This document shows positions 1,205 to 41,942 of a DNA stretch of 64,000 nt, one piece after another. Both the position numbers and the translations under genes were made by a program. Under the pieces are notes generated by a model. It saw only the letters and a list, made by a program, of their open reading frames with translations. It ran no database searches and was not told the origin of the DNA. The stretch's first letter is position 1; the number at the start of each line of letters is the position of its first letter. Origin of the DNA: Desulfobulbaceae bacterium (GTDB taxonomy: Bacteria; Desulfobacterota; Desulfobulbia; Desulfobulbales; SURF-16); the NCBI GenBank assembly GCA_020444175.1, contig JAHLLM010000032.1, forward strand, positions 186 to 64,185, given 5' to 3'.

Positions 1205-4200
1205 ATGTCCAGAAAAATGGTCACCATTGATGGTAATCAGGCCTGCACCCACGTAGCCTATGCCACCAGCGAAATCATTACAATTTATCCCATCACCCCT
1301 TCTTCACCGATGGCAGCTGAGGCCGATGCCAAGGCAACAGCCGGCCAGAAAAACATCTGGGGCAGCGTCCCTGTTGTCACCCAGATGCAATCTGAAGGCG
1401 GTGTGGCAGGTTCTCTGCACGGTTCTTTAACCACAGGCGCTCTCTGTACAACTTTTACCGCTTCACAGGGACTTCTTCTGATGCTCCCCAACATGTACAA
1501 ACTTGCCGGTGAATTGACTCCGACAGTTTTTCATGTTACCGCGCGCTCACTTGCCTGCCAGGGTTTGTCCATTTTCGGTGACCACGGCGACGTTATGGCC
1601 GCCCGCCAGACCGGCTGGGGCATGCTCTGTTCTCAGAACGTTCAAGAATGCCAGGACATGGCACTCATTTCGACCCAGGCAGCACTGAAATCCCGTGTTC
1701 CGTTCATGCATTTCTTTGACGGCTTCCGTACCTCCCATGAGATCCAGAAAGTAGAGCAGCTTACAAACGACGACATGCACGCCATACTTGATGAGGATCT
1801 GGTCATTGATCACCGTTTACGCGGCCTGACTCCGGACCGCCCAAGAATGCGCGGTACCGCCCAGAACCCTGATGTTTATTTCACCGGTCGCGAGACAGTA
1901 AACAAATACTACAACGCAATTCCGGGCATCATCCAGGAAACCATGGACAAATTTGCCGCCCTTACCGGTCGTCAATACAACCTGTTCGATTACCACGGAG
2001 CCCCGGATGCAGAGGAAGTTGTCGTCATGATGGGTTCCGGTGCCGAGACTGTTGCCGCAACCGTTGACTACCTTGCTTCCCAGGGAAGAAAAGTCGGTCT
2101 TGTTATCGTTCGTCTCTTCCGCCCCTTTGACATGAAAGCAATGGTAAATGCCCTGCCTGCAACGGTCAACAGAATCACAGTTCTTGACCGCACCAAAGAG
2201 CCCGGAAGCGCCGGCGAGCCTCTGTACCTCGATGTCCGCGCCGCCGTTGGTGAAGCAGTTGAAACAAATACTTCAGCCTACATGCCCATTATCCTTTCCG
2301 GCCGTTACGGCCTCGGTTCTGCCGAGTTTACTCCGGCAATGGTCAAAGCTGTGTTTGACAACATGGCAGCCATGGCGCCGAAAAATCACTTCTGCGTCGG
2401 CCCCAACGATGACGTTACCTTCACCAGCCTGAACTATGACAAGAACTTCAACATCGAAGGTGATGATGTTTACCGCGCCATGTTCTACGGCCTCGGTTCC
2501 GACGGTACGGTTGGTGCCAACAAAAACACCATTAAAATCATTGGTGGAGAAACAGACAACAGCGCTCAGGGTTACTTTGTTTATGACTCCAAGAAATCAG
2601 GTTCCCTCACCGTCAGCCATCTGCGTTTCGGCGAGAACCAGGTTGTGGCCCCTTACCTTATCAACAAAGCAAGCTTCATTGCCTGCCACAACTTCACATT
2701 TCTCGATAAATACGACATGCTGTCCAACCTGGAGGAAGGCGGAACATTCCTGCTGACCACCTCGTACTCTGACAAACAGGTCTGGAAACAGCTGCCGGGA
2801 AGTGTTCAGAAACAGATCATCAACAAAAAAGCCAACTTCTACATTATTGATGCCATCAAACTTGCCGAAGCCATCGGTCTTGGCGGTCGCATCAATATGA
2901 TCATGCAGACTGCCTTCTTCCTTATCTCCGGTATTCTGACAGAGAAAGAGGCAATCAAAGCCATTAAGGACGCCATTAAGAAAACTTTCGGCAAAAAAGG
3001 CGACAAAGTCGTTAACATGAACTATGACGCTGTTGACGTTGCCGTAAAAAATATCGTTAAAGTGAAAGTACCAAAGAGCACTTCCGGCCACGAAATGCCT
3101 CCAACCGTTCCAGAGGATGCTCCTGATTTCGTTAAAAACGTCACTGCCAAAATGATTCAGGGCAAAGGCGAAGATATCAAGGTATCCGAGATGCCGGACG
3201 ACGGTACATGGCCCACAGCGACTACTCAGTACGAGAAACGCAACATCGCAGTCCATGTTCCCAACTGGATTCCTGAAAACTGCATCCAGTGCGGTCAGTG
3301 TTCCCTGATTTGTCCCCATGCTGCAATCCGCATGAAAGTTGTCAAAGCCGCTGATATGAAAAAAGCTCCCAAGGCTCTGAAATCAGTTGCTGCAGTGGGC
3401 AAACAGTTCAAAGGACGCAAGACCATAATTCAGGTTTTCACTGAAGACTGCTGTGGTTGTACCCTCTGTGCCAAAGTATGTCCTGCCAAGAAAAAAGCCC
3501 TTGAGATGGTTACCAACGACGAGACAATCCGCAAAACCGAGGCAGCAAATGTCAAATACTTCCTTGATCTGCCTGAAATGCCATACTCTGAAATCAACCC
3601 TTCCACCATTAAGGGAAGCCAGTTGATGCGTCCGCTGTTCGAGTTCTCCGGTGCCTGTGCAGGCTGCGGTGAAACACCGTATATCAAACTGGTTACCCAG
3701 ATGTTCGGAGATCGTATGTTTGTGGCCAATGCCACCGGCTGTTCCTCCATTTATGGCGGCAACCTGCCGACTACGCCGTACAGTAAACGTGCAGACGGTC
3801 GTGGACCAACCTGGTCAAACTCTCTGTTTGAAGATAATGCGGAATTTGGTCTCGGCATGCGTCAGACGGTGAACAAACTCTCCCTGCAGGCTGCAGAACT
3901 CCTTGATGAAGCTGTGAAGGCAAAACTGATCACCAAGAAGATGGCCACCGAGCTGCTGAAAGCATCCCAGAAAACCCAGGATGAAATCGAAGCACAGCGT
4001 GATCGTGTTGCCAAGCTGAAAGAAAAACTGGAAGAGGCAGGCAACAATGCCGTTGCGAAACGGCTCTACTACGTTGCCGACTATCTGGTGAAAAAATCAG
4101 TATGGATCTTTGGTGGCGACGGCTGGGCCTATGACATCGGCTACGGCGGACTTGACCATGTTCTTGCTTCCGGAGAGAACGTCAACGTCATGATCCTTGA

Positions 4201-4750
4201 CACCGAGGTTTACTCAAATACCGGCGGCCAGATGTCAAAATCAACACCCCGTGCGGCCACTGCGCAGTTTGCTGCCGGTGGAAAGAAAATGCCGAAAAAA
4301 GACATTGGTATGATTTTCTCCACCTATGGCAATGTTTATGTAGCCAAGGTATCCATGGGTGCCAATCCGGGACAGGTTGCCAAAGCGATTGCCGAGGCAG
4401 AGGCCTATGACGGGCCATCACTCATCATTGCCTACGCACACTGCATTAACCATGGCATCAACCTGGCTAATGGTGTTGAACAACAGAAAAAAGCGGTTGC
4501 CTCCGGTCACTGGCCGCTGTATCGCTACAATCCTGAACTCGAAGCAGAGGGCAAGAATCCTCTGCACATCGACAGCAAGGCTCCGTCCATTCCGTTTGCT
4601 GAATACGCTCTGGCTGAGAACCGTTACCGGATGCTGAAACTGACCAATCCGGCAATGGCTGACGAGCTTATGGAAATGTCCCAGAAGGATGTTATGAAAT
4701 CCTGGAAGTTCCTGGAAGGCCGGGCCAAAGCTCTTGAGCCGGAAAAATAA
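1205..4750 (+). CDS. nifJ: pyruvate:ferredoxin (flavodoxin) oxidoreductase, homodimeric type
   Basis: YPITPSS, GSDGTVGANK, two ferredoxin-type Cys clusters (CIQCGQC..CP, CCGCTLC..CP), GACAGCGE and GGDGWAYDIG TPP-binding motif; RBS AAGGAG. Confidence 0.97.
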   Translation: MSRKMVTIDGNQACTHVAYATSEIITIYPITPSSPMAAEADAKATAGQKNIWGSVPVVTQMQSEGGVAGSLHGSLTTGALCTTFTASQGLLLMLPNMYKLAGELTPTVFHVTARSLACQGLSIFGDHGDVMAARQTGWGMLCSQNVQECQDMALISTQAALKSRVPFMHFFDGFRTSHEIQKVEQLTNDDMHAILDEDLVIDHRLRGLTPDRPRMRGTAQNPDVYFTGRETVNKYYNAIPGIIQETMDKFAALTGRQYNLFDYHGAPDAEEVVVMMGSGAETVAATVDYLASQGRKVGLVIVRLFRPFDMKAMVNALPATVNRITVLDRTKEPGSAGEPLYLDVRAAVGEAVETNTSAYMPIILSGRYGLGSAEFTPAMVKAVFDNMAAMAPKNHFCVGPNDDVTFTSLNYDKNFNIEGDDVYRAMFYGLGSDGTVGANKNTIKIIGGETDNSAQGYFVYDSKKSGSLTVSHLRFGENQVVAPYLINKASFIACHNFTFLDKYDMLSNLEEGGTFLLTTSYSDKQVWKQLPGSVQKQIINKKANFYIIDAIKLAEAIGLGGRINMIMQTAFFLISGILTEKEAIKAIKDAIKKTFGKKGDKVVNMNYDAVDVAVKNIVKVKVPKSTSGHEMPPTVPEDAPDFVKNVTAKMIQGKGEDIKVSEMPDDGTWPTATTQYEKRNIAVHVPNWIPENCIQCGQCSLICPHAAIRMKVVKAADMKKAPKALKSVAAVGKQFKGRKTIIQVFTEDCCGCTLCAKVCPAKKKALEMVTNDETIRKTEAANVKYFLDLPEMPYSEINPSTIKGSQLMRPLFEFSGACAGCGETPYIKLVTQMFGDRMFVANATGCSSIYGGNLPTTPYSKRADGRGPTWSNSLFEDNAEFGLGMRQTVNKLSLQAAELLDEAVKAKLITKKMATELLKASQKTQDEIEAQRDRVAKLKEKLEEAGNNAVAKRLYYVADYLVKKSVWIFGGDGWAYDIGYGGLDHVLASGENVNVMILDTEVYSNTGGQMSKSTPRAATAQFAAGGKKMPKKDIGMIFSTYGNVYVAKVSMGANPGQVAKAIAEAEAYDGPSLIIAYAHCINHGINLANGVEQQKKAVASGHWPLYRYNPELEAEGKNPLHIDSKAPSIPFAEYALAENRYRMLKLTNPAMADELMEMSQKDVMKSWKFLEGRAKALEPEK

Positions 4751-5600: not shown

Positions 5601-7796
5601 TTAGGGTGCTTGGTCTCTCACTTCTTCTGTTACAATATCACTGGAATCGATTTCATCATCCCCTCCTGCAGACTCATCTACCTCCAACATTGTCAGTTTC
5701 AAATCCGCCTTGAAAACTTCAGGGGAGTCATCCTGTCCTTGCTCAGGGGATATTGAAAAATAAAAAACATATGTCCCCAACTCAAGCTCACTGGTGTCTC
5801 CATAGAAAATCGGTGATTCATCAAGATGAAAAAGTTTCCCATGGTACACCTGCGCTTCTTTTTCTTTTTCCCATTCGCCCTGCGGGGTAAGCCACCTTGC
5901 TATTCCGTCAGGAGCCACATACCATATCCTGAAAGTGGATGGTACTGGTCCGGTGACGTTCTCGATGGTCGCAGACAATGTGATCTTTTCACCCTGCCGG
6001 AGGACAATTTCACCTGTCTTTCCGTTCCCCAACAGAGAGGGCTGAGGCCGAACAGGCCCCGGGGCGTCCGGCTTCCTGACAGCCCAGACATGAAGCTCAA
6101 ATGATTCAGGATAATTTCGGGGCGTTCCCTGGCGAAAATTGTATGCCCAGGCATGATAAAGATTGAAAGTGTTCTCAACAGCTGTCCAATAGTCTCGGGG
6201 TATCAAATTCACAGCACCCTGACTGTTGAGCCATGCAGCCGGTTCGCCGTCTGCGGCTGCCATCAGATCTGCCAGCATGGACATCTCAGGAAGCTGCCAA
6301 TTTTCATAGCCGGCTGAATACTCCTCACACTTCAATTTCTCCGGAATGGTATTCAGCCACTCAATAACCTTGCCGGCATGCTTTTTCTTCTCCGGCTTAA
6401 AACAATTGCCGTCTTTAAGCCACATGAGTCCGGTAATATTATCCGTAAGCGTACCGTCACCGTTATCTGTAAAACGCTTGACCGGCCACTTCACTGCCAT
6501 GGCTGGCCCCAGGGTCTGGAGAAGATAGTAATCCGCCATTCTTGAAAGCGAGGTATCCACATCCTGCACTCTGGGTCGCTTGGTTCTTCCATCAGCATAT
6601 CGCACCGCCCAGACAGAACGTTTACTCATTTTATCAACGGCACTCAATTCACCTGACCCGAGAAAAACAGCATAGGCCGAGGAAGTCTGACTGGCAGCGG
6701 TTGTCGATGTCCAGTATCGGGGCTGCAGACCTATAAAAGGATTATCCGGTAGAGCGGGAAGGTCATTCCTGTGGTCAATAATGCTTCGCAATTCATTCCT
6801 GTTCGGCAAGGCCCAATCGGAAAAATTGACTGAAAGCTCCCGGCATTGAATTGTGTCCGCCCTCTTGTTAAAAAGGACAACTTCGCTCAAGGCTTCCTGC
6901 CAGGTACTCCTTCTTCCGAGGCAACCGGCATCTTTAAGCCACATGAGTCCGGTCCTGACATCAGTAACCGTACCATTGCCGTTATCAATAAAACGGGGTG
7001 TGTTATCCCGAGGAGCCGGAGTCGGTTCAAGGGTCTCATTCGGAGTTGTTGCCTCCCCTCTGCCGACAAGATCGGTTAATTTTTGCAGAATGCCGGAACC
7101 ATCCTTATCGTCCTGCACATCAACAGCATGGCCTCCTGCTTCTGCACTGTCATTTTTTTGCTGCTTTCGCACCAGAAGACAATAACGGAGTTCAACCCTG
7201 CTCACAGCTTCAACTCCTCCGGTATCAAAACGAAAGACCCATGAAGTATAGGGGTTGGGGGCAGTCGTTCGCGACCAGTAACCTGACGCCTGAATATTTC
7301 TGAAACGATGCCGGTTCAGCCAGTGGTCAGCAGAGGCTTCTTCTGCGTTAAACAAGGACTCAAGCTCTGTAATTTCCGGAACGGTCCAATCATCATAGAG
7401 AGAAACACCAGGGCAGGATTCACTCGTCATCTCAGTTGATTTTTCCGCAGTTTCCAAGGCACCATGCCAACTTAACCGCCCGAGACAGTTGCCGTTCTGA
7501 AGCCACATAAGTCCGGTGAGATTATCTGAAACAGTACCGTCCCCGTTATCCTTAAAGCGTGGCTCCGGCCAGACAACTCCGGCCTGCAGATCGCCATCCT
7601 GACCTGTTGCCGTATGCTCAACAACTTCTCCCTGCTGATCAAAACAGGAAAGCTGGCCGGTACGTGGAAGTTCGGCAAGGACATTTCCCACGCCAGAGAC
7701 AGTCATCAGGATGAAGCTGATTATGAAGGCCTTCAGAAGGCCGGGACAAAGACGTATCATTTTCAAGGCTATATACGCGTTTTGGCACCCGCGCAC
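5601..7796 (-). CDS. exported protein with three DUF1566 (Lcl C-terminal-like) repeats
   Basis: Three RF.DNG.GT..D..TGLMWL repeats, each followed by W..P...L and YW[ST] motifs; N-terminal hydrophobic segment; exact start uncertain. Confidence 0.8.
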   Translation of the reverse strand: MRGCQNAYIALKMIRLCPGLLKAFIISFILMTVSGVGNVLAELPRTGQLSCFDQQGEVVEHTATGQDGDLQAGVVWPEPRFKDNGDGTVSDNLTGLMWLQNGNCLGRLSWHGALETAEKSTEMTSESCPGVSLYDDWTVPEITELESLFNAEEASADHWLNRHRFRNIQASGYWSRTTAPNPYTSWVFRFDTGGVEAVSRVELRYCLLVRKQQKNDSAEAGGHAVDVQDDKDGSGILQKLTDLVGRGEATTPNETLEPTPAPRDNTPRFIDNGNGTVTDVRTGLMWLKDAGCLGRRSTWQEALSEVVLFNKRADTIQCRELSVNFSDWALPNRNELRSIIDHRNDLPALPDNPFIGLQPRYWTSTTAASQTSSAYAVFLGSGELSAVDKMSKRSVWAVRYADGRTKRPRVQDVDTSLSRMADYYLLQTLGPAMAVKWPVKRFTDNGDGTLTDNITGLMWLKDGNCFKPEKKKHAGKVIEWLNTIPEKLKCEEYSAGYENWQLPEMSMLADLMAAADGEPAAWLNSQGAVNLIPRDYWTAVENTFNLYHAWAYNFRQGTPRNYPESFELHVWAVRKPDAPGPVRPQPSLLGNGKTGEIVLRQGEKITLSATIENVTGPVPSTFRIWYVAPDGIARWLTPQGEWEKEKEAQVYHGKLFHLDESPIFYGDTSELELGTYVFYFSISPEQGQDDSPEVFKADLKLTMLEVDESAGGDDEIDSSDIVTEEVRDQAP

Positions 7797-15544: not shown

Positions 15545-15711
15545 CGGTGTTCCATTTATGCCCTTTGCTGGTGTTTATCCCACTGCGGCTAAAAAATTAC
15601 CCAACAGACTGTATGATTCATTGAGAGTACACAACAGACGGTCGATACATTCCATGGCATTTTCCCGAGTTCAACAAGGTTGAATTTTGCCTTGCCCACA
15701 CTCCGTCTCTG

Positions 15712-16800
15712 TTATTCTCCTTTTTTCCCAGCCTGTTTATCTTCTTTCAAGTCATCAAGTAATATTTCAACGTCTGCGCCGTCTCGTAACTCCTTCATCC
15801 ATGCCTGACGCCGCTCCTCCTGAAAATAAGGGGCAAGCCGGTCCTCAATAAATCCCCTGGCCTCTTCAACAGTCATATCACGGGCAAGCTCATTCTTCGT
15901 TACCTCAAAAATATGGAAAGTGCCGTTATCCTCGACAACACCGCTGAAATCGCCAACTTTCATCTCAAGCATTTTTTCGTAAATAACAGGATATTTAGCT
16001 TTGCTGATTTTGCTCTTGCGAACAATAAAAGTGCCATCGAGAACGAGCTTGCCAAAATCATAATTTTTCGCTTTTAACTCGGCAAGAAGTGCCTGAGCAC
16101 GTTCGTGGGTGGCTTTTTCATTTTCAGCGTCCATAACTAGGATTTCTTTGACAAAAAACTCATCGGCTTTTTTTAATTTTCCCTCTTCCTTGTACTGGTC
16201 ATACATTTTTTGGACAACATCTTCCCTCTTGCCCACCTTCTGATATACTTCACGCCCGGTAATGCCTTCCAGGCGCCTGCTGCGGATAATTCTTTCCCGC
16301 AGTCCATCTTCAGTCAGTCCGGTCCCGTCAAGATAGCGCTGAAAACCTTCCGGGGTTTCATAGGCCTCTTTAATCTGGTCAATCACTTTCTGGACATCTT
16401 CCGGTTTGGGTTCGATACCCTGTTTCACAGCCTCCTTGACAGCCAGCTCTTCAAAAATGAGCCGATCCAGGGCACGCTGTTCAATCTCGCGGGTTACTTC
16501 CGCCGACGGTTCCTTAATATGTGAATAAAAGGCACTGTGAACCCGGTTCATCATACCTGTCAGGTCGTACATATTGATCGGAACTCCGTTCACTCTGGCG
16601 ACGACTTGTTTACGGGCCTCTTCGATTTTCTTTTTTTCATCGGCTGGAACAGCAGGAACATCATCCTGAATCATATCTGCCTGCTGTTCAGTGACTGCAG
16701 TTTCAGTTTTTGTATCATGGAGGGCGGTTGCCATAACCGGAGAGACAGCAAAGAAAGTACCGAAAAGTATTGCGGCAGCTGTATATCGCATGCGTTTCAT
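15712..16800 (-). CDS. SurA/PpiC-like exported foldase (degenerate parvulin domain)
   Basis: Signal peptide; VVARVNGVPI, ALDRLIFEEL SurA-N-like helices; VGDFSGVVE..GTFHIF parvulin tail. Confidence 0.75.
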   Translation of the reverse strand: MKRMRYTAAAILFGTFFAVSPVMATALHDTKTETAVTEQQADMIQDDVPAVPADEKKKIEEARKQVVARVNGVPINMYDLTGMMNRVHSAFYSHIKEPSAEVTREIEQRALDRLIFEELAVKEAVKQGIEPKPEDVQKVIDQIKEAYETPEGFQRYLDGTGLTEDGLRERIIRSRRLEGITGREVYQKVGKREDVVQKMYDQYKEEGKLKKADEFFVKEILVMDAENEKATHERAQALLAELKAKNYDFGKLVLDGTFIVRKSKISKAKYPVIYEKMLEMKVGDFSGVVEDNGTFHIFEVTKNELARDMTVEEARGFIEDRLAPYFQEERRQAWMKELRDGADVEILLDDLKEDKQAGKKGE

Positions 16801-16974
16801 AAGGACCCCTTGTGAAAATTAAGGTTATTTATCTGCAGACTCTTTACTTTGCAACTATGCTTTTAAGTTAGACAAAGGCCTACGCGAAAGGTTCGCGATT
16901 ATCATACTGAAATAATGTGCATGAACGTTAATTCGTAAAACTTTGTCTAATTTAAATCTTCAAGCAGAATTTTC

Positions 16975-17044: not shown

Positions 17045-20000
17045 TTAGTTAATCGTTACTTGCAGATCACCGTCTTCGTTAAAAGTGTAATCGGTTCTGT
17101 TATGAAGTGAATCAAGAATCATAATCCTGATTCGGTAATCACCGGCACGATTATAGGAGTGATCGATTCCAGCGGCAATATCAGCTACAGGATCATTTGA
17201 AATGGTACGTGACCTGTCGCCCCAGTAAATGTAGGCGCGATATGCGGATGCATCAACTGTTCCTGAAAGAGTTACAGTATCAGCGGCAACTGCGGTAGCG
17301 AAATCTGCGGCCGCAACCGGATCTTCAACAACAACAGCGTTTGCGTCAACGCTTGCTGTATCACATACTGCTGACTCATCTGCACCAGTGGTAGCGTCAT
17401 CATTCAGACATACTGTAACGCTTGCCGGGTAAGCTCCTTCAGCAGAATACTGCATGATCTGAGTTGAACCAGCCGGGAAGAGCGGATTTTCACCAAGTAC
17501 GGATATACCAAGTGTTCCAGCGTTTGTATCCCAACTGTAGTTACAACCCTGTCCCCATGGAGTAAGCACACCGTCAATGAGTACAGAACAGCTTGAACGG
17601 CTTGCATTCAGCTCAACGACCATGTCATATTCCGTAGAAGAAAGAGCACTGAGCTGCGCTGTTGCCTGGTAGGTATTCTGAGCTTGAGCAACTCCAGGAG
17701 TCATCAACAGGTCAAGTGTCTGCTGCGGATAACCGAGGAACTGGTTGGCGCTCATAGCAGTAGCAATGTGACGTTTGCCGTCCATGGCAGTGGCTGCTGC
17801 GGAGTTACACGGAACAACCGCCGGAGTCATGGGATTAGGTCCGCCCAGGTAATCATAGCAGTAGGAAGCCTGATCCCAAGCTGCAACATGGTTCGGGTTA
17901 CTCGGATTCTGAGCACCACTTACACCCCATTTCACTTTCGGAGTACCGTCTGCCTTGTAAGACTGCTGCAGGTCGACCTTGAAGTGAGAAACTGCCTCGG
18001 CGCGGCCAAGCAGAAGACCCATAGGATTGTGTCCGATCTCTGCCATATCAGTCATGGCGCCTTCACAATCACCATCTTGCATACAGGCACCGTTGTTGCG
18101 GAAACCGCCAGTACATGCTCCAGGAATACCGTTACCAGGATCAGCACCAACACAGGTACCATTGATCATGCCAGCATACATTGCTGCAGAACCGGCACCC
18201 ATCATACCGTCGATAGCGGCTTCAACACCGGCATCTGCGTAGTTCGGCATACAGTTATTGACGCTCTGTCCAGCCATGGGGCTGAAGCTGATAGGACCTG
18301 CGAAAGGATTACATCCAAGTGTTCCACTTGTCTGCAGTTCTTTCAGAGCAAAGCCCTGGATACCGGCAACACCGTCATACATACCCATCTGCATTGCTGT
18401 TCCAGCCGGGAAGCCCATGGCCTGATCAAAGGTCGTAGACATCATACCGATTACATGCTGCAGTTGAGCGTTGCCGCCTGTTGTACCGAACATCGCGTTA
18501 TTGGAGAACCAGGACCATGAAGCACATTCTGCTGTCATGTTCGGCTCACCGGTCATGGGATTGAAGTAGAAATTATGATGGTCGGTATTTGGGTTAGCCA
18601 TTCCGCCCAAACCGTCATCAGCCATTTTGGATGGATCGCCTGCGCCACACATGGCGGCTGCATCGAAATCAGCAAACATGGCCATCCAGTTTTTAACGAT
18701 CTCATAACCGCCTACACCAAAGCCAGGAAGACCGGCATTGGCTACAGGCTGGGTGTAGCCTTCAAAGAAGCCCACTGAGAACGGTGAGTAGTTGGGGCTT
18801 GCAGCGTTCATTGAAGAGTGACAGCTTACGCAACCGCCGCGCTCGGAACCGCCAAGGGCCCATTCTTTCGGAACAACACCGTGGGTTACGTCAAAGTCAG
18901 CCTGAATAACGTTCAGGAAGGTGACGAAACGTGCATCAGAACCGTTTGCACCACTGTCAAAGGCAGCCATCATGGCATCGATCTCTTCTTCAGTGTCGAT
19001 TTCCCAGGAGTCAACAATCTGGAAACCGTCAAAAAGAGGTACGGTGTTGCCGCCGTTCAGACGCATATCAAACTGCGGGTTATTATCGCGAACAAATTCA
19101 GCAACACGCTGCAGGTCACGGTTTTTAACTGGTGACGGGAAAGCGGCTGTTGTAGCGTCAAGGATATTGTCCATCGGCTCGCCAGCGGCAACCATTCCGG
19201 CGTCGTCTTGTACCAATACGCCGCTGTTCGGCACCATCTCATACCAGGTGGGAAGCAGTGAAGGCAGAACAGGATAGATCTTGGTCTCGCCATTCTTGGT
19301 GGCCCATTTACGTACGGAAGGTACGCTGTTATGGGTACCGGTGACAAGGTCAAAGTTCCAGTCAAGAACGTTTCTGAAAGTTCCACGGGCAAAACCAGCG
19401 GTCCAGTCACGATATTTCAAACGGCCGGGAGCTGAATAAGTCTCAGGCACATGACAGGTCACACAACCGATTCTGTCAAGATGGAGCTGAGGCAGACCGT
19501 TATGCAGCGGAGTAGGAGCATCAAGAGTTCCGCCGTTGTCTACCAGTTTTGGGTTGTCTCGTTCAGTATGACAACCGCTGCAGCGAATCTTGGCATCCAG
19601 GTTGTTCTTTCCTTTGGTATCAGGGAAGGAATCCGCCTGGGCAAACTGATGATCCATGGCGTAAATACGCTCGGCAGGATAATCATAGCCATGATGCTCG
19701 CCGGCTGGGATATCTTCATAACCGGTTCCTGTTGTCGAACCAACTGCGTAATGACAGGTGGCACATTCCATACCGTTTTGGTCATGCACATCGATATCAG
19801 GCATCTTACCCTGAATCGGATCGCCGAAGTTCGGTACGGTATTAGGATCAGCATCAAGGGTTGAAGGAGCAAACATTGACATGCCCCAGCGACCGTTAAC
19901 ACCATAAGCATCGTTTTCTGCAGTTACTTTATGTGCACGTTTACCCATACCGGTCTTACAACCGAAATCGAACCAGTAATCGTCGTTTACAGCACCAGGA

Positions 20001-21433
20001 CCGTTGTCGGTATCAAGATCACTGCTTGCACCCATGTTTCCTGAAGGCATTGGATTTGAAGGATCATGAATAAGGCCGTAGTTACCATAACCGGTCTTCA
20101 TGGCCATCATGCCGGGGAGTCCCATGGTATTATCATCACGGGCGTGACATACGGAACAGTTCTCGCTCTTCGGTGTACCGGCGATTTGTGCGGATTCAAT
20201 CTTCACACAGTCTACGGAAGGACCGTTTACATAATAAGGTGTGGCATACTGGCCGGCACATTGGCCACCAGTAAAGGCCTGGTAGGAGTAGTCACCACAA
20301 CCGGAAACATTATATATAACGTCGCCGCTTACACATGTTCCAACGCCTGTTGTATCTCCACCAGGAGAAACAGCGCCTGCACCCCAGTCAACACCGGTCA
20401 AGTCATCAACAGCACCATCACCATCAGCATCAGTAAATGTACCTTTCGCACCGGCACCCATGGAAGCGATAAGGTCAAGACGACGCTGTTTCAGACCGAA
20501 GTTACGGTTATACATATCATATTCCGTAACACCATCGCCGATGGTAACTGTCCGGCCAGGACCTTGAGGTGTTCCTGAACATGTAGGATCAACCATCGGG
20601 CCGATTGGATTGGAAGGACCACAATCAAGGGTCTTCAACCAGGCGGAACCAGCGTTTGAACCGTCAAGATGACACATCAAACAGTCCATCTCGGCTTTAT
20701 TTGTTGCACTCATGTTGCCAACAGTGACGTTGGTCCATGATGTTTCGTCTTCAGCAGTGTTTGGATCATCGGGGCGTGCATATTTCAGAACATAGGTGTC
20801 GCCTGGTCCTTCACCTGCAGAGCCGTAGGCATTGAGATCGCGGTTATATTCCATCTGACCGCCACCAACATGACAAACGCCACAGGTGTTTACCCAGGAC
20901 TGGGCTCCCATCTCAACTGAAAGAGGATTTGTTAAAGGATCAGCATTTTTAGCCGCCAACTGGCGGTTTGAGGGAGGTCAGTACTTGCCGAACATACCGG
21001 GCGAGTTGGCCCAGAACTTACCATGAACTGCATGACGCAAATGATTGCCGTAGTCTTCATTACGACCTTCCTGGGAATGACGGCCAACAACGAAACCATG
21101 CTCATATGCGGTTGTTTCAAAGCTTACCCATTCAACTTCACCAGTTGTCTCATTCTGGATACCCTGTGTCTTAACAACTGTCCTTGTAGCTCCACCACCA
21201 TCGTAACTACCACGAGGTCCTGAAAGGCTTGTGCTGCCATCTGCCTCAACAACATGATCATGACACGCGCCACAGGTCATTTTAGGGCTGTAGGGTGTCG
21301 TAGAATCAGCAATGATAGTACCAGCAGTATCCCGCAAAGGAACTGACGGATGGGCAAATGCATTGCTGCCGGCCATCAGAGCTGCGGTTGCCAGGGCTGA
21401 AACAACTAAGCCACTTTTATACCTTTTTTTCAT
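17045..21433 (-). CDS. putative selenocysteine-containing exported octaheme cytochrome c, 1462 aa (U152), with C-terminal PKD-like domains
   Basis: ORFs 20978-21433 and 17045-20959 are in one frame joined by TGA at 20978-20980, reading GMFGKY*PPSNRQLAAKN. Signal peptide and CGACH lie upstream, 7 CxxCH downstream; SECIS-like hairpin; same junction in the paralog. Confidence 0.85.
20951..20980 (-). promoter_or_regulatory. UGA codon plus candidate bacterial SECIS element
   Basis: UGA-CCUCCCUCAAA-CCGCC-AGUU-GGCGG; the stem starts after an 11-nt spacer. Confidence 0.75.
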
Positions 21434-21599
21434 TTTTAACTCCTTCGGTTAACTTCTTCTTAGTTCGATTTTCCCAGTCACTCAATTCGGCTTGGGGGAG
21501 CCGCGGGAATTTTCGTTTTAGATCCCGACTATCAAGTTAACTGTGGACTATCTCATTCTTGTAACGCAAATCACAATTTGGGAATGTGCTTGCATAAGT

Positions 21600-22501: not shown

Positions 22502-24142
22502 ATGAGGAAAACTTTGAGTCTCAGAAACCTGAAGAGAAAGAAAATAAAATCGAAAAAAAACGACCAGCAAGAAGCCCAACGTTTTTTTAGTATCGCCATG
22601 GCTCATAAAACCGATGGTCGTCTTGATGAGGCAATCCTGTTTTTCAAGAAGACGCTGCAATTCAACCCCGAGCATGCCGAGGCCAGCAACAATCTCGGCA
22701 ACACCTTGCATCTCCAGGGTAAAACACATGATGCCCTCCCCTATTACCAGTCAGCCTGTGATCTTGTGCCGCTTGCCCCTGAGGTCCTTTTCAACTATGG
22801 CAGCGCCCTTTATCAGGAAGGTTATATAAACAAATCCATAGAAATACTTACCCAGGCAACCCGGATTGACGCCTCGCATTTTAAAGCCTTTGCCTCTCTG
22901 GGAGTTGCCTATCAGGCGCAAAACAACCTTGACAAAGCCTTCTCGTGTCTTGAACGCGCCATAGAGCTCAATCCACATTACCAGGAAGCCCACCGCTTTC
23001 TTGGACTTGTTTTAAAAGACCAGGGAAACATGGATGGAGCGCTTCACAAATTTCGCAGCATCCTGCGAGACGATCCTCAAGATGCATTCACCAGGTATCT
23101 GTTGTCCCGTTATACGAAATACACTTCCGAAGATGAAGCTGAAGTCCCTTTTCTGCTTTCTCTCCTTGATGCACATGATACGAGCAATGATGACGCCATT
23201 TTCCTGCACTTCAGCCTCGGTAAAATTTTTGATGACTTGAAACAGTATGAAAAGGCTTTTCATCATTATACACTTGCCAACCGAAAAAAAAGGGAGTCGC
23301 TTAACCGGATTTCAATTTCTCCGGGCATAGATCTTAAAGGCATAAAAGAGGTATTCACACCCCAGCTTTTTTCCCGCTATCACCCTGTAAGCAGTTCTGA
23401 GCTCCCGGTTTTCATCATTGGCATGCCGCGTTCCGGCACCACACTGGTTGAACAGATTTGCGCCAGCCATTCCCTGGTCCACGGGGCAGGTGAATTGAAA
23501 ATGATTCGAGGAGTGGTTGAGGGCCTTAAGGCGCAATATAAAAAGAAAGGCTACCCACACTGCTTGAATTCCCTGGCTCCGGAAACCCTGGATACAATAG
23601 CCAATACCTATCTGGAGGAGCTCAAAGCAGGCTGCCCGAAAAATATCAGCAGAATAACAGACAAGATGCCCACTAATTTTATTGAGCTTGGCTTGATACG
23701 CCTCATCTTTCCCCGGACCAAAATTATTCACTGCCTGCGTGATCCGCTGGACACATGCCTTTCCAATTTTTTCCAGAATTTTGAAGAGGGAAACGAATGT
23801 TCGTTTGACCTTGTTGAACTTGCCTACTACTACCGAAAATACAGAGAAGTGATGCAATTCTGGCAGACGGCGCTGCCAGGCAGAATTTTTGAAATTCGTT
23901 ATGAAAACCTGGTGGAAAACGTGGAGGAGGAATCAAAAAGACTTATTGACTTCCTCGGCCTGGAATGGCAGGAGAGTTGCCTTGCTTTTTTCAAGACAAA
24001 ACGGATGGTCCACACCTCAAGCGACTGGCAGGTCAGACAACCTATTTACAATAAATCCGTGCGCCGCTGGAAAAATTATGAAAAATTCCTGGAACCACTG
24101 AGCAAAGGACTGGGAGAGTATGCCGGCACGGTTGCCGGTTAA
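22502..24142 (+). CDS. TPR-repeat sulfotransferase family protein
   Basis: N-terminal TPRs; FIIGMPRSGTTLVEQI PAPS-binding loop, DKMPTNF, RDPLDTCLS, RYENLV, QVRQPIY. Confidence 0.92.
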   Translation: MRKTLSLRNLKRKKIKSKKNDQQEAQRFFSIAMAHKTDGRLDEAILFFKKTLQFNPEHAEASNNLGNTLHLQGKTHDALPYYQSACDLVPLAPEVLFNYGSALYQEGYINKSIEILTQATRIDASHFKAFASLGVAYQAQNNLDKAFSCLERAIELNPHYQEAHRFLGLVLKDQGNMDGALHKFRSILRDDPQDAFTRYLLSRYTKYTSEDEAEVPFLLSLLDAHDTSNDDAIFLHFSLGKIFDDLKQYEKAFHHYTLANRKKRESLNRISISPGIDLKGIKEVFTPQLFSRYHPVSSSELPVFIIGMPRSGTTLVEQICASHSLVHGAGELKMIRGVVEGLKAQYKKKGYPHCLNSLAPETLDTIANTYLEELKAGCPKNISRITDKMPTNFIELGLIRLIFPRTKIIHCLRDPLDTCLSNFFQNFEEGNECSFDLVELAYYYRKYREVMQFWQTALPGRIFEIRYENLVENVEEESKRLIDFLGLEWQESCLAFFKTKRMVHTSSDWQVRQPIYNKSVRRWKNYEKFLEPLSKGLGEYAGTVAG

Positions 24143-28706: not shown

Positions 28707-30440
28707 ATGAACGGCAATGAGACGTGCATGTCAAAAAAGATAAAAAAGCTTGCCCGAAAAAAAAATCTCAGAAAACCTATCTTGCCGGATGGCAAAACGG
28801 ATACGCTCTTTCAACTGGCCGTACAGCACCACCAGGCAGGAAGATTCCTGGAAGCTGAGCAGCTTTATCAAAAGGTGCTTGCCAGCCATCCAAACCATGC
28901 CGATGCCAATCATTTTCTTGGACTTATTGCCCATCAGATGGATAAGAACGACACAGCTGTGCGGCTTATCAAAAAGGCAATTCGTGCCAACCCCCGCCTT
29001 GCTAATGCCCATAACAGCCTGGGTGCCGTTTATAGAAAAACAGGCAAACTGAAAGATGCGCTCACCCATTACAAAAGAGCCATCACACTACAGGCCGATT
29101 TTGCCGAGGCTCACAGCAACCTTGGCAACGTTTTTAACGAACTTGGACTTTTCGATGAGGCAATTGACTCGTACCGAAAAGCGCTGGCCATAAATCCCAA
29201 TGACAGTGAGGCCCACTCCAGCCTTATTTTTGCCTTAAACTATCACCCCGACGTCAGCCCTGAAGATATCTACAAGGAATCAGTGAGCTGGTCAAAACAT
29301 CACAGCAGACAACGAAATGACAATGAAACCACAACAGAGAAGCGGGCTTCCAAACGACTATTAAGGATAGGCTACGTATCCCCTGATTTTTATCATCACC
29401 CGGTAGGCCGCTTTCTCCTGCCTGTTCTGCAAGAACACGACCGCAGCGCATTTGAAATTTTCTGTTATTCAAACACCTCAAAAAATGATGCCTGGACAGA
29501 AAAAATAAGAGCAAACTGCGATCACTGGTTTGACATCACCAGTAAAACTGATGACGCAACGTGCAAGCAAATAACAGAAGACAGGATAGATTTACTTATT
29601 GATCTTGCCGGCCACAGCGGAGGAAACCGGCTCGGCATTTTTTCGGGCAGGGCGGCACCTGTTCAGGCCAACTGGCTTGGCTACGTGAATACAACCGGCC
29701 TTGCTGCCATGGATTACCGAATTACGGATGACATTGTCGACCCTCCGGGCAGTTCCGAGAATCATTACACCGAAAGCCTGATACGTCTCCCTGACGGTTT
29801 CTTTTGTTTTTCGCCACCCGAACAATCCCCGAAAATAGTGGAACCGCCTGCCCAGAAAACAGGCATGGTTACCTTTGGCTCAACAAATAACATCAGCAAA
29901 CTCAACTCAAATGTTATTTCTCTCTGGTCACAAATTCTGGTCTCAATCCCTAAGTCCAGGCTGCTGATAAGAAGCAAGGCCTGTACAGATGCTGCAGTGA
30001 GGAAAAACCTCCTTGCCCAATTCTGCAGAAGAGGAGTGGCCGCCCATTGTATTGAATTTCTGCAAGGGACCACCTTTGACAATTACCTCAGAGCCTATAA
30101 CGAAATCGATATTTGCCTCGATACTTTCCCCCATAACGGACACACAGTCTCATGTGACGCACTGTGGATGGGGTGCCCCATCATTACCTTGCGGGGAAAC
30201 CGTTATGCTGGACGAATGGGGGCCGATCTGCTCAGCCGGCTCGATCTTGCTGAGCTTATAGCGGAAACAGAAAAACAATACATCGACATTGCAACGGCAC
30301 TTGCTGGTGATCTCAACCGACTTGCCATGTTAAGGAGTGAAATACGCCCCCGCTTTCTCCATTCTTCACTTTGTGATGCAAAACGTTTTACCCATTCTCT
30401 TGAGACGGCGTTTCAAAAGATAATTAAAGAGAAATATTAA
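28707..30440 (+). CDS. TPR-repeat O-GlcNAc transferase-like glycosyltransferase (GT41/SPINDLY family)
   Basis: TPRs, then RIGYVSPDF..HPVG, DLAGHS, APVQANWLGY..TTGL, LDTFP.NG..DALWMGCP; start could be 28728. Confidence 0.9.
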   Translation: MNGNETCMSKKIKKLARKKNLRKPILPDGKTDTLFQLAVQHHQAGRFLEAEQLYQKVLASHPNHADANHFLGLIAHQMDKNDTAVRLIKKAIRANPRLANAHNSLGAVYRKTGKLKDALTHYKRAITLQADFAEAHSNLGNVFNELGLFDEAIDSYRKALAINPNDSEAHSSLIFALNYHPDVSPEDIYKESVSWSKHHSRQRNDNETTTEKRASKRLLRIGYVSPDFYHHPVGRFLLPVLQEHDRSAFEIFCYSNTSKNDAWTEKIRANCDHWFDITSKTDDATCKQITEDRIDLLIDLAGHSGGNRLGIFSGRAAPVQANWLGYVNTTGLAAMDYRITDDIVDPPGSSENHYTESLIRLPDGFFCFSPPEQSPKIVEPPAQKTGMVTFGSTNNISKLNSNVISLWSQILVSIPKSRLLIRSKACTDAAVRKNLLAQFCRRGVAAHCIEFLQGTTFDNYLRAYNEIDICLDTFPHNGHTVSCDALWMGCPIITLRGNRYAGRMGADLLSRLDLAELIAETEKQYIDIATALAGDLNRLAMLRSEIRPRFLHSSLCDAKRFTHSLETAFQKIIKEKY

Positions 30441-30838: not shown

Positions 30839-33800
30839 ATGAAAAAAAGCTATAAAAGCGGTCTGATAGTCTCAGTCATAGCCGCAGCAGCGTTTATGGT
30901 GAGTGCCTCAGCTCAGGCCTTTACCCATGATCGTGTCACCTTGCGGGATGCCTCAGGTGCTGCTCTTGCCGCTGTTGATACTGATGCTGACGGCATCGGC
31001 GATGCAGTTCCGGCTACTGCTCCTGCGTACAGCGCCAAAGAAACGTGTGGCGCGTGTCATGCCTATGATGCTATTGAGCGTCATTCTTTCCATGCTCAGC
31101 TCGGGGCCAACGAGCACAAAGGTTGGAATGCCTGGGCAATGGGTAACTGGAACTCTATTGCTACGAAAGGAAAACCCTGGGTTCAGTCGCCAGGACATGC
31201 AGGCAAGTGGTGACCTCCTTCTGCTCGGCAGTTTGCTCGAGTATTCGGAAATGATATGTCATCCTTTAACGCTGCTGATAAAGGCAAGTACTACAGTGAT
31301 AACGACAATGATGGTTCTTATGATGGCGGCACTGTAGATAAAATGTGTAACCCTTTTGGTGTCCAGATGGTTCCAGGCTGGCCAAAACCTGGCTGTGTCA
31401 ACGTTAAACCTCTGACCCAGGCCCCGGTCGACTTTGCTGCCGGACCTTTTGACTTTGGTTCAACCACTGCCTTTGCAGCCAAGGTGGACAACTCAGTAGC
31501 CGGCCAGATGCGTGACTGTGCTGAATGTCACGTTGGTGGCGGCATGATGGAATACATCCCAGTATCCGGCTCCACTGATCTATCCGCCGGAACATGCGAA
31601 ACCAGGACAGAATTCTTTGACTCAGACAAAGACGGTGTTGCTGAGCAATATGACTCTAACGGCGGCGTAGCATGTGATGCCTCTGATCAGGGCACGCAAA
31701 TCTGCGGAACCTATCCCTACACATATGGCACCAAAAACTTTCAGTGCATCCCTGCCAACAGTCGTCAGGAACTGCGTAGCGCAACCCTTACCGGCGTCAA
31801 TACCTTTAATTATTTCATCGACCAGTATGATGAGAACAACGACGGTTCTATCGGCGAGGTTATTGCTCAGGACTATAATGACACCGGTGTTCTGGAGATG
31901 GACTGCCTGATGTGCCATCTTGACGGATATTCCTGGGAAGACAGGAAAGAAGCCATACGCAAAGGCCGCTTTGATGCGTCCCGTGCCCAAGGTGCCGGGA
32001 TTGGTGTCGTTGTTGACGCAAGCGGCGACGGCATGATCGGTGCCGGTGACGGCAATGTAGTTTCCTATGATGCCGCGGCTATCAGCGTAAATTCAAGCGG
32101 CGAGTTGACCCTGGGCGCCACCGGACTTAACGTTCACGGCTCAACTCCAAGTGAAAACTGTAACAGCTGTCATGGTGACCTGCACCAGGTTGACTGGAAG
32201 AAACGCGGTGACTCATGGACCGGCGACTACGGCAACGATGTCCATGCTGCAATCGGCTGTATCGGTTGTCATGATCCTTCAGTTAAATGGGCTGCAGACG
32301 GTACTGACGCTGACCACGGCTGGCGTGACTACATGGAAAGCCTGAACCTTGACGGTAAGGGATCCAGCGCAGTACTTGGCCACGACCCTGCTAAAGGAAA
32401 TGCCCCATACAGTTCACTGTGGAACAAGACAGACAACTCAATCGTTGGCTGTGCGGGCTGTCACTCCGGTGCTCCTACAGCAGCTGAAACCTTTGATGCT
32501 GCCGATCCAACTGCAAAGCATGAGGCTTTGGGCCTGACTTCCATCATCGCCCAGGACGGCCGTGACGGTGTCCGCGATATAAGCCATATCGAGCTCCTCG
32601 ACTGCTCCGTCTGCCATGTGCGCAAACTTGGCCGCGGGCCTTCCGCAGTTGAAGGCGGCACAACACACGGTTCACTCTACGAGTGGGGTACCGGTGGCGC
32701 CATGGTTGACTCCACCGGCACCGACGCTGATGGACGCCTGACCGACCACGAGAACCTCTATGTAGAGCGTACCATGGAAGACAACCTGTGCTACTCATGG
32801 CAGGGTTCCAAGCTCACAGCGAGAAACGCCCTGGTTACCATGTTCTGGCGTGACAAAGACGACAACTTTGCAAATGGCGGAGATCCGGCTTACTTTGACG
32901 TCAATGCTGATGGCCAGACAGGTGCTATGGATGCGGTTAATCCATCCCATGTCCGTGATGCCATGGCTGCTGCGAATCTTGATGTTCTGACCCACGATGG
33001 TATTATCGATGACGCTGAAATAGCTGCCCAGCAGACTGCACTGGCTAACTACCTTGCTGATAACGATGCAGATGGATACAGTGACATTCTTGGCACCTGT
33101 ATGTCCACCTCCTGTGGTAATGTTGCAGACTGGACAAAAGGCAAATTAAAACTGTCCTTCATGGGTGTTACATTCAAGGTTAACCATAACATCAGTCCTG
33201 CGGGTACTGCCCTGGGTAAAGGTGGTTGTCTTGACTGTCATGGTGCCGGTACTGTTTACAGCGGCTCCTACGATCTCAAGCCACGCGACCTGGATGCAAG
33301 CTGGGACAACACCTCTCCAACAGGCGAGAACAAATGGGTTGTTCCTTTCACCAAGGTTAACAATGCTGATTACGACGGCGACGGCGTAGTTGAAGGCGGC
33401 GACAAAGGGGACTGGCAGTTTTCTGACTTCCATCCAACTCTGTTTGCCAAAGGCCTGAAAGGACGTTCCATTGCTGTAACTGCTGCTAAAGGCGGCGCGG
33501 ACACTATTCGAACCATCGATCGTTCCGAGCTTCTTTATGAAGGCGACTCCACAGTAACTGGTGGTCCTGGTGCACGTACCATGGTTGACGGTACAGTGGC
33601 CACTGGTCGTGCAGCAATCGTTGCGGCTCTTGACAACGTTACCGACGCTATGCATAACCGTCATGTTGCTGCCGGCTATGGTAAGTGTTCAACCTGTCAT
33701 GACAACGGTGCAGGCGGACTGAATCTGTCCAAAGCGGGCGTATCTGATCTCGGATCCCTGTATGCTTTTACAGTAGTTGATGACGGTCTTGGCAACCCGC

Positions 33801-34450
33801 TGACCTGTTCAGCCAATGCCTGTCATGGCGACAACGGTTTCTCTGATGATGTTGCCTGGGAACTGGCAAGTGAAGTCAGTGTAACCCCGTACCTCAGCGC
33901 TCTTGCCGACCAGGATTATGATATGGTTGTTGAGCTCAACGCCAGCAGGTCAAACTGCGATAACGGTTGCGTGAGTTACAGTTGGGACACTTCAGGCGGT
34001 ACTGTACTTGGTGAACCGACGGACGAATTTGGCGCTCTCCTTTATCCCGCCGGTTCCGCGCTAGTTGTCCAGTACGGAGACACCAGTCAACACACTGCGT
34101 CTATTACGGTTACGGATGCTTCTGGTGAAATGAGGGCAACAAGCGTCAGCTTTACTCCTCAGATCGTTACTGATCCGGTAACAGGAGCTGATTTTACTTC
34201 TGCGGTTGCCGGGAATGACGTGACTCTTTCAGCAACAGTTGATGCATCTGCTTATCGCGCCTACATTTACTGGGGCGACAGGTCACGTACCATTTCCAAT
34301 GATCCTGTAGCCGATCTTGCTGCTGGAATCGCTCACACCTATAATCGTGTCGGCGATTACCGAATCAGGGTTATGGTTCTTGATTCACTTCATAACAGAA
34401 CCGATTACACTTTTAACGAGGACGGTGATCTGGAAGTAACGATTAATTAA
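30839..34450 (+). CDS. putative selenocysteine-containing exported multiheme cytochrome c, 1203 aa (U125; 9 CxxCH + CX4CH), with C-terminal PKD-like domains
   Basis: Start ATG 30839 (AAGGAG). TGA at 31211-31213 is in frame with ORF 31256-34450, reading SPGHAGKW*PPSARQFARVF. Signal peptide occurs only upstream of the TGA; SECIS-like hairpin follows. Confidence 0.85.
31211..31242 (+). promoter_or_regulatory. UGA codon plus candidate bacterial SECIS element
   Basis: UGA-CCUCCUUCU-GCUCG-GC-AGUUU-GC-U-CGAGU; hairpin with a bulged U. Confidence 0.75.
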
Positions 34451-34522: not shown

Positions 34523-34648
34523 TGTTTAGGGTTGGCTTTATAGAGCATGTTGAGTATAAAGTTTATTGTAAGAATTACGTATTAAGCTGGTGGATGAGAA
34601 TAATCCATGACTCTCATCTTACACCTTACCCCTCATTCCTCGCACATT

Positions 34649-39703: not shown

Positions 39704-39721
39704 AATATTGGTTTATTGCAA

Positions 39722-41815: not shown

Positions 41816-41825
41816 AAAAAACTCA

Positions 41826-41942
41826 TAGTGTCATGTCAAATGCCTTTTGACGCCTGCTGTAGGTCGGGAACCCATTCCCGACACTGAAGAGTCGCCATGG
41901 GTACGGCGATCTACACGACAATTGAAGCTTGACATGACACTA
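41826..41942. mobile_element. MITE with 14-bp perfect inverted ends (TA-bounded, IS630-like)
   Basis: TAGTGTCATGTCAA ... TTGACATGACACTA; internal GTAG-GTCGGGAA-ccca-TTCCCGAC hairpin. Confidence 0.65.

Follow-up and report, generated by a model that had tools for sequence, protein, structure and literature searches.

A predicted selenocysteine-containing multiheme cytochrome encoded across an in-frame UGA in a Desulfobulbaceae bacterium

Introduction

What does a bacterium make from two neighboring open reading frames (ORFs) of the same frame, if the first has an export signal but a single heme motif and the second has seven heme motifs but no export signal? This question is raised by a locus within a stretch of 64,000 nt on contig JAHLLM010000032.1 of a Desulfobulbaceae bacterium (GenBank assembly GCA_020444175.1); the whole stretch is called the window in the following. 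Judging from sequence comparisons, these 151-aa and 1304-aa "genes" are very probably one gene, in which a UGA is decoded as selenocysteine (Sec, U). Before 2026, the combination of Sec and c-type hemes was a bioinformatic curiosity; then MccSep was shown to be the long-sought catalyst of sulfur respiration. The locus in the window would represent a second, unrelated and much larger family that combines the two.

Results

A single reading frame across the UGA

Translated with TGA as Sec, the minus strand from 21433 to 17045 yields 1462 residues with one non-standard step, U152. The frame extends from an ATG at 21433 to a TAA at 17045, and the TGA at 20978-20980 is the only one within it. The codons around it (ggc aag tac TGA cct ccc tca aac cgc cag ttg gcg) read GKY-U-PPSNRQLA, exactly as quoted in the original prediction, a reading of the DNA letters that had proposed the UGA to join two ORFs in one frame. 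Under translation table 11, the frame is split into 20978..21433 (151 aa, ATG start) and 17045..20959 (1304 aa, nominal TTG start). The downstream piece contains seven heme motifs and lacks both a ribosome-binding site (RBS) and a signal peptide. The only RBS, the signal peptide and the first heme motif lie upstream of the UGA, a distribution that had likewise been predicted and that agrees with the CxxCH positions and the sequence. The nominal TTG start at 20959 is spurious and falls within a hairpin resembling a Sec insertion sequence (SECIS), and the residues PPSNRQ, encoded after the TGA but ahead of any possible start codon, are conserved as protein across phyla. Orthologs have open frames of ~1350-1670 aa with one TGA where the contig spans the whole gene. 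The features of the locus are compiled in Table 1.

Table 1 Features of the Sec-type cytochrome locus, its paralog and conserved neighboring genes in the window.
Feature	Position	Strand	Basis
SurA-like peptidyl-prolyl isomerase, directly downstream of the 1462-aa gene, conserved neighbor	15712..16800	-	ORF scan, locus comparison
Coding sequence, predicted Sec-containing octaheme cytochrome, 1462 aa + TAA	17045..21433	-	translation with TGA=U, ortholog frames
RBS AAGGAG, 6 nt before ATG	21440..21445	-	read from sequence
Predicted signal peptide, residues 1-27 (...SNAFA/HPS), not lipobox	21353..21433	-	read from translation
Heme motif 1, CGACH, residues 54-58, before UGA	21260..21274	-	motif scan
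In-frame UGA, predicted Sec152	20978..20980	-	translation, homolog column
SECIS-like hairpin CCGCC-AGUU-GGCGG	20953..20966	-	folding, conservation, pairing counts
Region of heme motifs 2-8 and GCKTGMGK motif (C492)	18818..20884	-	motif scan, conservation
C-terminal PKD-like tandem domains, ~residues 1258-1462	17048..17662	-	Pfam, family profile, paralog alignment
Paralog 2, predicted Sec-containing cytochrome, 1203 aa, 9 CxxCH + one CxxxxCH	30839..34450	+	translation, UGA 31211-31213
NHL beta-propeller	38363-39703	+	neighbor scan
699-aa protein, no family	39716-41815	+	neighbor scan
SurA-like peptidyl-prolyl isomerase	41847-43058	+	neighbor scan

Metatranscriptome contigs from four runs of one study bridge the UGA with zero differences (X1, 20372-21576; X2, 18979-21588; X3, 20825-21175; X4, 20536-21245). 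The depth in the four runs was 51-80 for the SurA-like gene (15600-16853) and ~5-17 for the cytochrome gene (17051-21588), which lay on separate contigs; the about five-fold deeper SurA-like contigs are a weak argument for RNA over contaminating DNA. The upstream limit of the RNA contigs, near 21576-21588, lies ~150 nt before the ATG and could correspond to the 5′ terminus of the transcript.

Machinery for Sec insertion and the genetic code

The genome possesses a tRNA-Sec (67.2 bits, above the cut-off; called SeC with anticodon tca by ARAGORN) together with selA (621.9 bits), selB (367.8 bits) and selD (379.1 bits), each above its cut-off. The presence of selA, selB, selC and selD, proposed in the original prediction as a check of the genome, is thereby established at the level of family cut-offs. 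TGA ends 11 of the 37 ORFs in the window and 310 of 918 long frames genome-wide. It is thus an ordinary stop codon, which excludes a general reassignment (code 4 or 25). The selD gene itself (contig C79:89271-90194, locus L018) holds one in-frame TGA, so that the organism probably makes its selenophosphate synthetase as a selenoprotein, too.

UGA, Cys or Ser in homologs

We searched 401 genomes of the order Desulfobulbales with the first 330 residues and obtained 26 places in 22 genomes, 20 of them listed with exactly one TGA and six with none. Read at the column of U152, 22 of the 26 loci have TGA, including two whose search match ended before the column, and four have Cys (TGC or TGT); Trp never occurred, as the original prediction had required of a Sec position.

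A species-level pattern scan with one genome per species yielded 64 loci. The column holds U only in 32 of these, U with a Ser-type neighbor in three and U with a Cys-type neighbor in one, that is, a TGA in 36 of 64 overall; four loci have only Cys, 20 only Ser and one Ile, and in three the column was not found. The U forms occur in Desulfobulbales (Desulfurivibrionaceae, Desulfocapsa and relatives), in Nitrospirota (Thermodesulfovibrionales, Ca. Sulfobium) and in four Geomonas records (three cultured strains). All but one of the 20 Ser-only loci belong to Acidobacteriota-type records, the exception being a metagenome-assembled genome (MAG) of the Geobacteraceae. Taken together, the same TGA column is found in 32 distinct 60-nt sequences from three phyla, with conserved flanks GMFGKY and PPSNRQLA and purifying selection on both sides, a recurrence well beyond what chance would produce. 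Cys codons (TGC/TGT) at this column were found in L034, L045-L047, L069, L070, L072, L093, P0009, P0015, P0035 and P0061. Among these, the Cys-bearing sequence ...GKYCPPSNRQLA in P0009, P0015, P0035 and P0061 represents three full-length proteins and one more distant match.

In the protein database, 54 of the 59 matches to residues 1-330 span only the part after the UGA. The N-terminal fragment alone makes up 97 database clusters of 116-232-aa proteins, every named one of which is a "hypothetical protein". Most of the named downstream pieces carry the same label, and two are called "InlB B-repeat-containing protein".

In a maximum-likelihood tree of 33 N-terminal sequences, six Cys rows occupy four separate positions within Sec clades, which fits the usual pattern of Sec loss. 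One MAG contains both a Sec form and a Cys form that is 90%-like, on two contigs (L068 and L069). The Cys form of L069 (TGC) keeps an intact CCGCCAGTTGGCGG hairpin, which suggests that Sec gave way to Cys very recently or that strains vary at this site. In the Geomonas loci L117, L118 and L120, no more than a few kb separate a Sec-type gene from a Ser-type paralog (GKWSP.YNRQL), so that U and S forms stand in tandem.

A SECIS-like hairpin downstream of the UGA

The original prediction had cited the rule that Sec is encoded by a UGA with a 3′ hairpin. Such a hairpin begins 11 nt past the UGA and consists of a 5-bp stem with the loop AGUU (CCGCC-AGUU-GGCGG), with 16 nt from UGA to loop and a folding energy of -9.4 kcal/mol. 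This satisfies the published rules for bacterial SECIS (bSECIS) elements as far as the available text of PMC13188914 gives them: a loop of 3-9 nt, a stem of 4-16 bp, a G in the first two loop positions, a UGA-to-loop distance of 16-37 nt and a minimum free energy <= -7.5. At the gathering threshold, an Rfam scan of the window returned no SECIS family, just a 6S RNA.

At positions +1 to +3 (P, P, S), each of the four synonymous codons is in use among the 32 distinct Sec-type 60-mers, whereas codons +4 to +8 are AAC CGC CAG TTG GCG in 31-32 of 32. Arg and Leu have six codons each, and codon choice at these positions differs among the five distinct Cys-type sequences (Leu: TTG in two, CTG in two, CTT in one; Arg: CGC in four, AGA in one). 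The hairpin is degraded in four of these five; the fifth, L034/L069, has kept it intact and groups with a Sec-type sister, the picture that a recent Sec-to-Cys conversion would give. In 16 distinct sequences, every position of the 5-bp stem pairs (80 of 80 cells); two pairs, in L043 and L078, have changed on both sides from C-G to U-A, and two cells are G-U. This count in a fixed register omits paralog 2, L041 and L042, whose stems have a bulge or insertion. The pairing pattern was reached by six of 500 shuffles, and slid registers pair far worse. Paralog-2-type genes have different stems with the same CAGUU center. The frozen synonymous sites and the two compensatory pairs support RNA-level selection on the predicted hairpin.

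Architecture of the 1462-aa protein

Read directly, the N-terminus MKKRYKSGLVVSALATAALMAGSNAFA/HPS resembles a cleavable signal peptide of the general secretory (Sec) pathway. All 33 kept homolog N-termini start with a basic and then hydrophobic leader, which is supportive but not independent, as the start-codon rule applied to them selected such leaders. The CxxCH motifs are located at residues 54, 184, 251, 426, 557, 618, 657 and 868, one before and seven after the UGA. Between hemes 1 and 2 lies the Sec loop G146-M-x-G-x-x-U152-x-P-x-x-R157-Q158, in which G146, M147, G149, U/C152, P154, R157 and Q158 are invariant in 33 sequences. In subfamily 1, with eight CxxCH, seven His outside the motifs are invariant (H112, H119, H550, H595, H644, H651, H851), and H501 (42/47) and H701 (40/47) are nearly so. 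Conserved Cys outside the heme motifs are C271, C285, C492, C929 and others. The lone C492, in the motif GCKTGMGK, is conserved in subfamily 1 only and has no counterpart in paralog 2 and the Geomonas Sec forms.

Pfam assigned a cytochrome c7-like stretch to the protein and gave matches below cut-off to the MtrC/MtrF domain II/IV (PF22113; 22.8 bits, gathering cut-off 30) and to PKD (PF00801/PF18911; 22.2 bits, gathering score 23.5). The Cytochrome_cB-like family, remembered in the original prediction as having Cys at this position, was absent from the Pfam scan at E<=1, and no model of NCBIfam release 20 covers the protein. A single-sequence search of the PDB had zero matches at E<=1. The family profile matched the PKD domain of ColH among solved structures (E 1.2e-8), and its PDB matches were confined to PKD domains and trivial CxxCH stretches. 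AlphaFold2 gave a mean predicted local distance difference test (pLDDT) of 55.3 and a predicted template modeling score (pTM) of 0.46 for residues 1-1200 (47 rows), and values of 56.4 and 0.67, respectively, for residues 1-720 (33 full N-terminal rows); the Sec loop was below a pLDDT of 50 in both. Foldseek searches of both models against the PDB returned zero matches at E<=0.001. Overall, the sequence features strongly support an exported 1462-aa polypeptide with eight c-type hemes by motif and a PKD-like C-terminus, and the PKD-like domains at this end suggest a location in the envelope or at the surface.

Paralogs in the same genome

The window contains a second predicted Sec-type cytochrome gene, paralog 2, with the UGA at 31211-31213 in the context GKW-U-PPSARQFA and its own hairpin with a bulged stem (~31222-31243). 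The two proteins align across the stop, as the original prediction had noted, and share 58% identity over the last ~210 residues. Paralog 2 is above the cut-offs for both PF22113 (40.5 bits, cut-off 30) and PKD (31.8 bits). Its closest relatives include Geomonas genes with GKWUPPSLRQVA. A third paralog of 1396-1397 aa, on contig C37:146118-150300 (L047/L056 = P0015), is one of the four Cys-bearing places of the Desulfobulbales search. Its codon at the Sec column is TGT, and its hairpin is degraded; within 16.5 kb around this locus there is no SurA-like neighbor.

Comparison with known heme-related selenoprotein families

MccSep, also called ExtKL (GSU2937-2936 of Geobacter sulfurreducens; NF040886; PDB 9WT8-9WTC), is a pentaheme polysulfide reductase that forms tetramers. 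Its heme 2 is ligated by Cys239, and its catalytic nucleophile is Sec325, located beside a heme in an Ig-like domain at the C-terminus (PMC13510729). It shares several traits with the gene in the window: both encode exported multiheme cytochromes c with one Sec via an in-frame UGA and are annotated as two ORFs, both families have Sec/Cys homolog pairs with Cys forms nested in Sec clades, and both occur in Desulfobacterota and Nitrospirota and are linked to sulfur metabolism. They also share a U-P-x-x-N-R motif, UPPSNR in the window and UPTPNR in eight of eight MccSep homologs (L131-L138). In G-U-P-T-P-N-R and Y-U-P-P-S-N-R, U, P, N and R are in register, but the motif is too short to prove a common origin; it may reflect convergence (anion binding or loop geometry) or chance.

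In contrast, MccSep has ~450 aa with five hemes followed by Sec, whereas in the 1462-aa protein Sec comes after heme 1 of eight and the end is PKD-like. The SECIS sequences are unlike each other, too. NF040886 (cut-off 250 bits) matched neither the 1462-aa protein at E<=1 nor either of the Sec genes in the genome-wide search, and PDB 9WT8/9WT9 were matched neither by the protein (phmmer) nor by the family profile. As a control, a true MccSep homolog of a related genome matched 9WT8/9WT9 at ~1e-153; hence, the searched PDB set contains MccSep. Direct comparison gave a best BLASTP E of 0.33 and an hhalign probability of 16.8%. With no detectable homology and a non-collinear architecture, we rejected membership in MccSep/ExtKL, in line with the original prediction, in which ExtKL had been named as a different multiheme selenoprotein. 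MccSep genes (~450 aa, one TGA), separate from the window-type gene, were found in 20 of 40 genomes of the same family. Both genes are present in G153, G053, G004, G044, G144 and G181, and the window's own genome has no MccSep above cut-off (best 33 bits). The MccSep survey required five heme motifs and discarded matches <200 aa (PMC13510729), so that the family described here could not have been collected there.

Other heme-related selenoprotein families are, as far as the available text of PMC13188914 lists them, GSU2204 CXXCH (NF041027) and Sec forms of the tetrathionate-reductase octaheme (OTR) family (TIGR04315). Like the 1462-aa protein, these are CxxCH proteins of anaerobes with one Sec, and OTR likewise has eight hemes. 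We rejected both: the protein scored 10.1 bits against the OTR cut-off of 375, and it had no match at E<=1 to GSU2204 (cut-off 350), whose best hit in the genome (88 bits) lies on another contig. MtrC/OmcA are, like the window genes, large secreted multiheme proteins, and NHL propellers and chaperones surround the gene as in envelope electron-transfer clusters; unlike in MtrC/OmcA, the heme density is low (eight in 1462 aa), and of the two window genes only paralog 2 passes PF22113. We know of no Sec in MtrC/OmcA.

Full-text searches of the literature yielded no description of the family. The supplements of PMC13510729 (data S1, S2) and selenoproteome surveys might list members; for the former this is unlikely given the stated filters. 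In the deep-Sep paper, the words "cytochrome" and "heme" do not occur. As judged from its sequences, this is a new family of Sec-containing multiheme cytochromes, with an architecture differing from known ones.

Possible role of the Sec residue

Sequence and comparative evidence indicate that the ribosome initiates at the ATG and that the hairpin recruits SelB with Sec-tRNA(Sec) at the UGA, placing Sec at residue 152. Translation then proceeds to the TAA, and the product is predicted to be exported via its signal peptide and to gain eight c-type hemes. For Sec152 we propose a redox-active, catalytic function in electronic contact with the heme chain, like that of Sec325 of MccSep; its selenolate might attack polysulfide, S0 or another chalcogen species of this kind, and the resulting adduct would be reduced or oxidized via the hemes. 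A catalytic selenolate is proposed because of the analogy to MccSep and because the family occurs mainly in sulfur- and iron-cycling taxa, which comprise sulfur disproportionators, sulfide oxidizers and iron reducers. The gene also lies within an island of cytochrome, NHL and SurA-like genes of a type known from electron-transfer systems of the envelope. For Desulfurivibrionaceae, sulfide oxidation is linked to iron-oxide respiration via multiheme cytochromes, according to the available part of PMC12545173. By this analogy, Sec152 could be the catalytic nucleophile, an assignment that we make tentatively. Taken as a whole, an explanation that joins one Sec-decoded gene with a catalytic selenolate appears probable to us, with most of the weight on the first part. 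We also considered a general MccSep-like pair of a heme-ligating Cys and Sec involving C492 and dropped it, GCKTGMGK being absent from paralog 2 and the Geomonas Sec forms; within subfamily 1, C492 could be such a ligand.

Several points weigh against our proposal. The hairpin is short, with only 5 bp, and the folding energies are not exceptional compared with shuffles (z -1.21 and -0.81). The RNA contigs bridging the UGA come from a single study, and RNA libraries can hold DNA. Acidobacteriota homologs retain eight CxxCH yet carry Ser at the column, so the residue is dispensable for the fold and may vanish with the function. In the sequence there is no Cys near Sec as an obvious resolving partner, and because C492 is missing from paralog 2 and Geomonas, a MccSep-like Cys/Sec pair is not general. 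With no detectable homology to MccSep, the analogy is one of chemistry and a six-residue motif. Finally, the AlphaFold2 models are too poor at the Sec loop to judge the fold or the Sec-heme distance.

In a real selenoprotein, Sec could also coordinate one of the eight hemes as its distal axial ligand (His/Sec) and tune its potential or act as a ligand switch. Eight CxxCH stand against seven invariant outside His, a set of ligands that the invariant U/C152 would complete, and Sec is located outside every CxxCH in a rigid conserved loop. However, H501, H701 or a conserved Met could be the eighth ligand, and ~20 Acidobacteriota loci have kept eight CxxCH with Ser at the column, which is not a heme ligand. 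To our knowledge, there is no natural Sec-ligated heme, and a His/selenolate-ligated heme has so far been made only by protein engineering. His/Cys hemes are a catalytic hallmark of cytochromes that convert sulfur compounds, such as TsdA, SoxAX and MccSep (heme 2) (PMC13510729). On balance, an axial Sec ligand seems unlikely. We would likewise call it rather unlikely that the protein is a cell-envelope enzyme of sulfur-disproportionating or iron-respiring bacteria with a natural His/selenolate heme that acts on extracellular sulfur or metal-sulfide species.

In another reading of a real selenoprotein, which we consider improbable, the hemes would only conduct electrons to acceptors outside the cell (iron oxides, electrodes, partner cells). 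Sec would then convert no substrate but would act as a redox switch or protect the protein, forming a selenenyl-sulfide with a distant Cys. Desulfurivibrionaceae are reported to respire iron oxides via multiheme cytochrome networks in the available part of PMC12545173. Such a conduit would also suit the PKD-like C-terminal domains, the several conserved non-motif Cys, the surrounding island of multiheme cytochromes, NHL propellers and SurA-like chaperones, and paralog 2, which passes the cut-off for the MtrC/MtrF domain II/IV; the 1462-aa protein, however, stays below it. Moreover, Sec is costly and almost always catalytic in known enzymes, and the strict conservation of the whole loop together with the repeated replacement of Sec by Cys rather than by any residue points to a chemically active thiol or selenol.

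Readthrough by near-cognate suppression or another recoding of the UGA (as Cys, Trp or Arg), in which the hairpin merely slows termination and no selenium is involved, would agree with the short stem of unexceptional energy. This is highly improbable in view of the complete Sec machinery, the loss of hairpin conservation in four of the five distinct TGC/TGT sequences, the alternative residue Cys as the classical counterpart of Sec and the other selenoprotein genes (MccSep) in half of the 40 genomes of the same family. The position of the hairpin, its loop G-U and its energy also fit a bacterial SECIS as described in the available text of PMC13188914.

A pseudogene disrupted by a nonsense mutation, or two genes of which the second, after a genuine stop, encodes an independently translated 1304-aa protein, would match the way in which gene callers and public annotations split the locus (97 N-terminal clusters, 54 downstream pieces), but it has next to no probability given the TGA column shared by 32 distinct sequences of three phyla under purifying selection on both sides, the protein-level conservation of PPSNRQ before the first start codon, the seven heme motifs of a downstream piece that has no signal peptide or RBS and a "start" inside the hairpin, and the existence of full-length Cys homologs.

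If the gene is decoded as proposed, the ~100 N-terminal clusters and dozens of signal-less "7-heme hypothetical proteins" would be halves of one exported selenoprotein, and cytochrome censuses and localization predictions that treat them separately would be wrong for this protein. There appear to have been two or more origins of Sec-heme chemistry, which have a similar U-P-x-x-N-R loop in common; even if Sec does not ligate a heme, the catalytic proposal, if true, would describe a second, independently evolved Sec-heme catalytic center beside MccSep. The family ranges over Desulfobulbales (relatives of Desulfurivibrio and of cable bacteria), Nitrospirota and cultured Geomonas. The cultured Geomonas carriers are G. 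azotofigens Red51, G. propionica Red259 and G. anaerohicana Red421, whose genes belong to subfamily 2 with the site WUPPSLR. Because it is present in cultured Geomonas and in Thiovibrio sp. JS02, and because the tools developed for MccSep are applicable, a role of selenium in extracellular sulfur and iron redox reactions is testable.

Genomic context

The window is a cytochrome island with seven further multiheme cytochromes, two NHL propellers, three SurA-like peptidyl-prolyl isomerases (PPIases), two sulfotransferases with tetratricopeptide repeats (TPR) and one TPR-GT41 glycosyltransferase. A SurA-like PPIase gene adjoins the Sec-type gene in all nine Sec-type stretches that extend past the gene and is absent at both Cys-type stretches compared. 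An NHL propeller, the 699-aa protein and a SurA-like PPIase form a module at 38363-43058 of the window. At Nitrospirota Sec-cytochrome loci, the first two are likewise neighbors, in many cases together with the PPIase. This module was found at L075, L079, L083, L087 and L091-L094 (50-57% and 25-28% identity), and the 699-aa protein might be an outer-membrane component.

The TPR-sulfotransferase genes (22502-24142 and 34607-36724, both on the plus strand) flank both Sec-cytochrome paralogs, and the gene for the O-GlcNAc-transferase-like TPR-GT41 protein (28707-30440, plus strand) is located between the paralogs. A TPR-sulfotransferase also adjoins the ortholog in L049 and L052/L076. Their products may modify secreted cytochromes post-translationally.

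Elsewhere in the window, an ORF of 1181 aa (1205-4750, plus strand) resembles pyruvate:ferredoxin oxidoreductase by eye. A 731-aa protein with three Lcl C-terminal domains (Pfam PF07603, E 2.4e-58) is encoded at 5601-7796 on the minus strand, and the 6S RNA (Rfam RF00013, 54.1 bits, above the gathering score) lies at 62519-62697, also on the minus strand.

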